Origin: a virus
Lineage: Duplodnaviria; Heunggongvirae; Uroviricota; Caudoviricetes
Direction: 5' to 3' (one strand)
Virus record (IMG/VR): IMGVR_UViG_2660238209_000010
Span: 1 to 4,274 of that record
DNA: 4,274 bases
Within the stretch, counting starts at the first letter, position 1; every line of letters begins with the position of its first letter. A program made the position numbers. Below, one piece after another: positions 3,001-4,274 of this stretch.

Positions 3001-4274
3001 CGGCACTTTGATGTTTTTCTCCACCCATGCCAGCGCCTTATCACGCTCAATGGCGTTAACCTGGTCGCATTTTTCCTTCGACAACTTCATGCCCGGGACG
3101 ACAGGTTTACCATCCACCAGGATGGCACCGCGGCAGATGGTCCAGATACCCGTACCATCACGGTATGCTGTGGTGTGGTTACCTTCCTTTTCATCCAGAA
3201 ACTGGTCGAGGATTTCAGGCGCAGACGCCCCTGCACCAATCAGCGCCAGAACGGCAGCCGACAGGCCGTATCTGATTTTTGCGTTCATGGATATTTATCA
3301 GGATTTATCGATTTCAAATCCCTGGATATGTTAAGTCTTCAGGCCAGCGGTGGAGTCTTCAGAGAACCCGTAATTATTCCCGGTAGTTTTCCTCTGTAGG
3401 TTATCAACACATCCTGCGCCTCTAAAATGATGGGCCGCTTTTCCGGCAACGGACCATCCCCTTCACATAACCCGGCAGCAACATCCATGAAAAACTGCTT
3501 CGCCTGCTTTTTCGCCTCAGCTTCGTAAAACTCCAGCGTGGCACCTTCAGTACGGTCAAGACTAATCGCCACATCTGGCAACAACAGTGACGGATACCCA
3601 CCAATTTCCAGTGCCACAGTAACAGTAATCTTATCCGGGTAATTATTTATCCCTTTAACAACCAGTTCGTATTTTTTCTTCATCGCTTTACTCTCCCCGC
3701 GCCGCCTTACGCTTATCTTCTTTAATCTTGAAATAAAGGTTTGTCAGATACGTCAGCAGGCCAAACAGCAGACTCCCCAGCACACCTATCGCCACCCACT
3801 GGGACGGAGAGACTTTGTCCAGCAGCTGCAGTAACCAGTATCCCGTCCCCACCGCTGACGTGGTGTATGACACACCCGTTGTGATTTTTTCCATCTGATG
3901 TATGTCTCCGTCACCGCCGACAGAAAATGAAAGTAAAGGAAAACAAAAAAGCCGCCAGTGTCACCCACTGACGGCCAACTCCGGGAGCCGTGATTATGGC
4001 ATTCAGGCTCTGCTAAAAATGCCAGATAACATTCCGGCCTCCCCCGATTCAGGTTATAAATGACACAATATCTTGACAACATCCGTCACTGTCTGTCAGA
4101 AAATGTACTGCCATATAGAAGCAACATGTGAAGTACATCTATCCTTTTGAGCCAGCACCTCTCCACCGAAAGTCAGTGCTGGCTGTTTTTTTCCTTAATA
4201 AAGCATCTGTAACTGAAACAATCCGCATATTGATAATATATTGACAGGCATCATTGCTGTCTGTGAAAAATAAG

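Follow-up and report, generated by a model that had tools for sequence, protein, structure and literature searches.

A YdfR/DUF1327-family gene between the phage-21-type holin gene and the SAR-type lysozyme gene of a prophage late operon

Canonical lysis cassettes place the endolysin gene directly after the holin gene, which raises the question of what a further open reading frame (ORF) does when it stands between the two. This is the arrangement in the stretch of caudoviricete DNA analyzed here (4,274 nt; IMG/VR record IMGVR_UViG_2660238209_000010, positions 1 to 4,274; herein referred to as the window), for which the original prediction, made from the sequence alone, proposed either a role in lysis timing or regulation or a hitchhiking moron. 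Our preferred reading, which we hold tentatively and at somewhat below an even chance, is that the ORF product is a small accessory protein of the cytoplasm from the YdfR/DUF1327 family, its gene being an optional insertion in the late operon and no part of the holin–endolysin–spanin machinery, and that this protein may be capable of binding RNase E.

The lysis cassette and its prophage surroundings

Every gene in the window lies on the minus strand (table 1). The holin gene upstream of the ORF encodes a protein with a strong match to PF04971 (E 1.2e-32) and 81% identity to EssQ, and the lysozyme gene downstream (R) encodes a protein that is 91% identical to RrrQ, carries the E-x8-D-x5-T triad and a Gly/Ala-rich N-terminal segment, and aligns with full-length R21 (3HDE) and RrrD (4ZPU), N-terminal SAR region included. 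The terms pinholin and SAR are homology-based labels and denote putative modes of action throughout. The holin gene has a single start (3892-3909, minus strand; preceding codons ATA CAT CAG ATG); its relatives carry an M-Y-Q-M dual-start motif for antiholin and holin.

Table 1. Coordinates of features in the window and of the small ORFs that follow DUF1327 genes in related loci
Sequence	Feature	Position	Strand	Basis
Window	Lom	116-775	-	Pfam Ail_Lom
Window	Tail-tip protein J, C-terminal fragment	808-1908	-	Pfam Ig_GpJ_C/Phage_Tail_Tip
Window	Ant-type antirepressor	1915-2484	-	Pfam P22_AR_N
Window	SAR-type lysozyme (R), 177 aa	2755-3288	-	PF00959 Phage_lysozyme
Window	Conserved endolysin leader, 50-nt spacer	3289-3338	-	Comparison across DUF1327 cassettes
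Window	DUF1327/YdfR-family ORF, 114 codons + stop	3339-3683	-	PF07041, phrog_406
Window	Deletion scar, homology breakpoint at the ORF's last codons	3339-3348	-	blastn vs L012
Window	Low-confidence tail, codons 75-114	3342-3461	-	pLDDT <50
Window	N-domain, codons 1-74	3462-3683	-	Alignments + AlphaFold2
Window	Phage-21-type class II holin, 68 aa	3688-3894	-	PF04971 'P21 holin S'
Window	Shine-Dalgarno GGGGAGAG for DUF1327 start	3691-3698	-	Direct reading of sequence
Window	Intrinsic terminator, 11-bp stem then U-run	3950-3976	-	-22.3 kcal/mol, z -3.9
L012 (long-form cassette)	Partner ORF	3479-3739	Convergent to DUF1327	phrog_2572
L020	Partner ORF	3311-3589
L016	Partner ORF	3244-3540
L009	Partner ORF	5309-5548
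L004	Partner ORF	5247-5486
L007	Partner ORF	5278-5529
L008	Partner ORF	5282-5506
L039	Partner ORF	4245-4526
L040	Partner ORF	768-1070

A strong intrinsic terminator is located ~55 nt upstream of the holin start, from which we infer that expression of the cassette depends entirely on antiterminated late transcription; the related long-form locus L012 has a terminator at the equivalent place. A second stable hairpin, at 4150-4192, has z values of -3.3 and -4.3 on the two strands and a U-run on the plus strand only, and would thus terminate transcription antisense to the lysis genes. No RNA family was found in the window with Rfam. The 270-nt spacer between R and Ant (2485-2754, minus strand) contains no convincing ORF and carries an 11-mer, GCGCATCTCAC, twice in tandem.

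At the junction of holin gene and ORF the sequence reads directly as ...CGC GGG GAG AGT AA-AGCG-ATG AAG: the holin stop codon TAA (3688-3690) is followed by the 4-nt spacer AGCG and by the ATG of the ORF (3681-3683, minus strand), and a Shine–Dalgarno (SD) motif embedded in the final holin codons lies 7 nt from that ATG, giving the full order GGGGAGAG-TAA-AGCG-ATG. The 114-codon ORF, its SD motif and its 4-nt distance from the holin stop are hence all present as first described. The junction RNA is less structured than shuffled sequences (z +1.46), so that the SD motif is accessible, and since folding does not show it sequestered, strict re-initiation coupling is not required. The ORF shares its transcript with the lysis genes and relies for translation on the SD motif in the holin 3' end, and the 4-nt coupling to the holin gene is invariant in all Escherichia loci seen. 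The GC content of the ORF (47.5%) is lower than that of the holin gene (52.2%) and of R (54.5%).

The prophage itself is incomplete. The Ant stop codon abuts the C-terminal fragment of J (1908-1915), which is followed by Lom, and E. coli O111:H8 strain 8E has the identical Ant/J-fragment junction in its annotation; in intact relatives, the order is Ant, a 48-aa ORF, Rz and then terminase. Because Rz/Rz1, terminase, head genes and most tail genes have been deleted, we regard the window as part of a defective prophage without a spanin.

Family membership, protein anatomy and history of the window copy

Length alone does not prove the ORF to be a gene, because the window also contains several spurious antisense ORFs of 100-131 aa. 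The evidence that it is one comes from its match to PF07041 (DUF1327; score 155.4 bits, cut-off 25, E 4.7e-46, with residues 1-112 covering profile positions 1-92 of 93), its match to phrog_406 ('unknown function'; E 1.8e-64), a dN/dS of 0.2-0.45 across alleles and thousands of intact copies. The ORF is unambiguously a member of the YdfR/DUF1327 family, the profile search thereby giving a family to what had been described as an uncharacterized protein; an NCBIfam scan of the protein gave no match. The family and its position are already annotated.

The identical 114-aa protein is encoded by H-19B, BP-4795 and many Stx1a, Stx2a and Stx2c phages, and occurs in 8,593 index blocks of an assembly collection. 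In all eight assembly-collection loci shown, the order is holin, 4 nt, ORF, 50 nt, lysozyme; each of these loci lies downstream of a nanS-p type esterase gene, and half of them lie just downstream of stx. Related DNA is present in 3,159 of 5,426 complete E. coli genomes (58%), with up to eight copies per genome. The family is otherwise tiny, with 95 representatives (50% identity) in a set of 1.84 billion proteins, and among species-representative genomes it is found only in Escherichia, Shigella and two metagenome-assembled genomes. The latter bear the labels Veillonella parvula and Bacillota; their contigs (L024 and L026) code for a YdfR-type N-domain that shares 47-49% identity with the window protein, much as K-12 YdfR does, and most likely reflect binning contamination. 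Several database ORFs (P0001, P0002, P0010, P0068, P0038) show internal DUF1327 duplications, holin–DUF1327 fusions or a DUF1327–Ant fusion, and probably reflect assembly errors, frameshift artefacts or prophage decay.

This distribution bears on the possibility that the ORF is a functionless remnant, as the gene losses described above and the truncated form of the protein, with its disordered tail, might suggest. We consider this very improbable, given that the same 114-aa protein is carried by the inducible phages H-19B and BP-4795 and recurs throughout the assembly collection.

The encoded protein is mildly acidic (pI 5.5) and was correctly expected to be soluble: its maximal 19-residue Kyte–Doolittle hydropathy is 1.18, where the holin reaches 1.83 and the SAR segment of R reaches 1.67, and it therefore has no transmembrane segment. 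A holin, an antiholin or another membrane lysis factor was rejected as an identity for the protein on the lack of a transmembrane or SAR segment. Structure prediction with AlphaFold2, one of the checks originally suggested, yields an ordered N-domain of three strands (residues 5-14, 18-27 and 37-43) and a helix (50-73), with block pLDDT values of 74-93 over residues 1-70, followed by a tail with pLDDT <50 (residues 76-113). Codons 75-114 correspond to the linker of long forms of 176/183 aa, and in a model of the 183-aa form their counterpart, again of low confidence, links the N-domain to a C-terminal helical hairpin. The ~74-aa N-domain is the only part common to the whole family; stand-alone members of 72-76 aa align with it almost without gaps (Y53-E54 invariant, Y5 nearly so), and its conservation reaches Yersinia and Salmonella homologues. 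A sequence profile search of the PDB returned nothing significant (best E 0.54), and no convincing match was found among solved or viral structures. A HicB-like relationship, suspected from the strand–strand–strand–helix order, was not supported by hhalign.

The N-domain is under purifying selection (dN/dS 0.2-0.45). The window version shares only 60% nucleotide identity with the common allele and synonymous sites are saturated, whereas the flanks are closer (linker 89% identical to that of L012 at the nucleotide level; holin pS 0.34). The window N-domain is an old divergent allele, and its position between far more similar flanks indicates that the gene is a recombinational mosaic.

Long-form YdfR genes (L012, phage 2H10) have the same holin junction, N-domain and linker as the window, but differ from it in retaining the C-terminal helical hairpin and a convergent 86-aa ORF. 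By blastn, positions 3337-3801 of L012 (465 nt) have no counterpart in the window, and it is this segment, located between DUF1327 and R, that contains the C-terminal helical domain and the convergent ORF (phrog_2572). This comparison shows the window copy to be a deletion derivative.

A small convergent ORF (74-104 aa; herein referred to as the partner ORF) directly follows DUF1327 at most sites sampled, namely between S and R, near holin genes in other contexts, and between the tail genes M and L and I and J; it is seen in E. coli (L012, L020) and in phage Evi, while the window, Qin, mEp460 and L042 lack it. Some partner ORFs are clearly coding when compared with one another (the Evi and L040 pair shares 58% identity with a pN/pS of 0.39), and three match phrog_6806. 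The recurrence of a convergent partner at all four kinds of site, its signature of selection, the presence of old divergent N-domain alleles within mosaic flanks and the loss of the partner by deletion in the window have a possible explanation in a two-gene conflict module, in which DUF1327 would serve as a late antidote or modulator of the partner and the window protein, as an orphan half, would be left nearly idle. We regard this as unlikely, because the partners belong to at least three or four barely related families (homology among all of them is not established, at 12-23% identity to the first sequence in the alignment), consensus scans of the partner ORFs detected neither a promoter nor a terminator, and PADLOC models matched neither the DUF1327 forms nor the partner ORFs at E<=1. 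Moreover, the forms without a partner are intact and the window allele has spread in active Stx phages. A more elaborate version, in which DUF1327 and its partner form a mobile two-gene module at the S/R, M/L and I/J sites, the partner being expressed from the prophage and DUF1327 acting late on the holin's translation signals either to neutralize it or to retune RNase E, with the window as an orphan spreading with Stx phages, is decidedly speculative and in our estimate rather unlikely.

An optional late gene within and beyond lysis cassettes

Whether the ORF belongs to the lysis machinery can be addressed by asking where it is missing and where else it occurs. The survey of co-occurrence that had been suggested for this purpose is informative: the holin type is found in 427 phage records and the DUF1327 gene in 101, such that about three quarters of the records with this holin type lack the gene. 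In VT2-Sakai, the start of R lies 4 nt downstream of S and the junction is identical (GGGGAGAG-TAA-N4-ATG); this is the canonical order from which the window had been said to depart. The S-R-Rz cassettes of phage 21 and VT2-Sakai share with the window the holin family, the lysozyme family and the SD-TAA-N4-ATG junction, but VT2-Sakai accomplishes lysis with R directly after S and no intervening gene, an order that we take to be that of phage 21 as well. The ORF as an obligate component of a pinholin/SAR-endolysin system was rejected on these counts and on the Sakai gene order.

DUF1327 genes also occur outside this setting. The S/R site is that of Escherichia loci; in Salmonella, a member follows a PF16080 holin, on one short contig a member lies upstream of PF16931/PF05449 holins, and in Yersinia-type loci distant, Pfam-positive members are found in the tail operon, between M and L and between I and J. 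The position thus varies, yet the gene is always co-oriented with the late genes. Confinement of DUF1327 to lysis cassettes was rejected in view of the Pfam-positive homologues at the two tail sites.

Since the gene is optional, has homologues in tail operons and occurs with other holins, a lysis-specific role is not supported. One form that such a role could take is a protein-level regulator, in which the acidic protein would tune the time of triggering by attaching either to the pinholin, at its basic C-terminal tail, or to the not yet exported SAR endolysin. The invariant holin coupling in Escherichia would fit a regulator of this kind, as would the additional coupling of the Qin gene to R through an ATGA overlap and the several non-Escherichia copies that lie beside lysis genes. 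A Keio ydfR mutant also came up as a raw match when mutants were screened for envelope leakiness (PMC3879167, supplement), although we suspect that this phenotype stems from the kanamycin cassette driving rrrQ or from a polar effect on rrrQ. Against these observations stand the holin records without the gene, the tail-operon homologues, the lack of a membrane segment and the absence of a growth effect when YdfR is over-produced, and we judge protein-level regulation of lysis to be distinctly unlikely.

The insertion might alternatively act only in cis. The 50-nt leader upstream of R has no SD motif (it reads ...GATAAATCCTGATAAATATCC-ATG) and is kept in the window, H-19B, L012, Evi and mEp460; indeed, R has an SD-less leader in every DUF1327 cassette examined except the Qin type, in which ydfR overlaps R. 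The final bases of the leader persist within the 3' end of K-12 ydfR. Cassettes without the gene have R in the 4-nt slot and those with it, the Qin type aside, have R behind the SD-less leader; the ORF has thus taken over the holin-coupled start. The insert could accordingly alter the R:S ratio while its protein product is irrelevant, as the shared SD and 4-nt slot and the conserved leader might be taken to imply. This is highly unlikely to be the whole effect, considering that dN/dS is below 0.5, that the N-domain is conserved as far as Yersinia and Salmonella homologues and that the copies in tail operons cannot act in this way.

Of the two possibilities raised at the outset, optionality, the homologues at tail sites and beside other holins, the low GC content and the absence of a growth defect on over-production of YdfR favour the moron one over the lysis-timing one, with a qualification. 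Of the moron criteria of Hendrix and Juhala, the ORF shows insertion between otherwise adjacent genes (S and R in Sakai) and a deviating GC content; in Yersinia-type loci, family members likewise interrupt the M/L and I/J pairs. Consensus scans for a promoter or terminator of its own found no flanking site above chance, so that it is not a textbook moron. It resembles the lambdoid morons lom and bor in being present or absent between adjacent genes with deviating GC content, and differs from them in lacking its own promoter and terminator and in being co-translated with the late operon instead of expressed from the prophage. Additionally, a pure hitchhiker would not need the 4-nt holin coupling that is invariant in Escherichia, which counts against a reading of the ORF as mere cargo. 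We hence retain the interpretation of the ORF as an optional accessory gene of the late operon.

RNase E as a candidate partner of the N-domain

The closest point of reference for the function of such a gene is ydfR of the K-12 prophage Qin (b1555, P76160), which had been cited as the same arrangement with an undefined function. Similarity in place and N-domain is borne out: the K-12 gene belongs to the same Pfam family, likewise starts 4 nt after an S21-type holin gene and is likewise located just upstream of a lysozyme gene, the two lysozymes being 91% identical. The sameness ends there, since the two proteins share 47% identity over residues 1-74 only, their C-termini are unrelated, and the ydfR stop codon overlaps the rrrQ start (ATGA) where the window has a 50-nt spacer.

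For the function of ydfR there is a single experimental lead; in the literature on DUF1327 or the 'YdfR family', we found no other functional study and no experiment on lysis timing after removal of the gene. A two-hybrid screen recovered residues 1-72 of YdfR as binding the RNase E catalytic half, and purification of Strep-YdfR brought down Rne1-598 together with nucleic acid resistant to DNase (Goepel et al. 2026, PMC13232886). In the same study, over-production of YdfR caused no growth defect and few transcript changes, full-length YdfR scored only with Rne1-597, and a contaminant as the source of the RNA was not excluded by the authors (PMC13232886). Elsewhere, ydfR is tabulated among candidate 'survival genes' for streptomycin, with the MIC raised 3-fold.

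We hypothesize that, late in infection, the N-domain binds a host factor. The best candidate for this factor would be the N-terminal, catalytic half of RNase E, with RNA perhaps bound as well, and such binding would tune RNA decay during use of the long late transcript. There are precedents among phages, as T4 Srd, T7 gp0.7 and phiKZ Dip all modulate RNase E, and Srd binds the catalytic N-terminal half of the enzyme (PMC4980113). YdfR resembles them in being a small phage protein with a possible action on RNase E and, like Srd, is reported to bind that half. No sequence or fold relationship between YdfR and these proteins was found, and they also differ in timing and lifestyle, the YdfR gene being a late one of temperate phages, and Srd and gp0.7 being made early by virulent ones.

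For the window protein, the best lead, if a weak one, is that its N-domain may bind RNase E or RNA. RNase E binding and RNA co-purification pertain to K-12 YdfR only, a homologue of which the N-domain differs most from that of the window protein in the loop between strands 2 and 3; the few altered transcripts, the restriction of the full-length interaction to Rne1-597 and the possible origin of the RNA from a contaminant likewise weigh against this part of the interpretation.

The DUF1327 gene is among the most common uncharacterized prophage genes in E. coli. In Stx phages, it resides in the late operon downstream of stx and beside the genes for toxin and virion release, and should its product modulate either RNase E or the timing of lysis, the output of toxin and phage from an induced EHEC cell could be affected.
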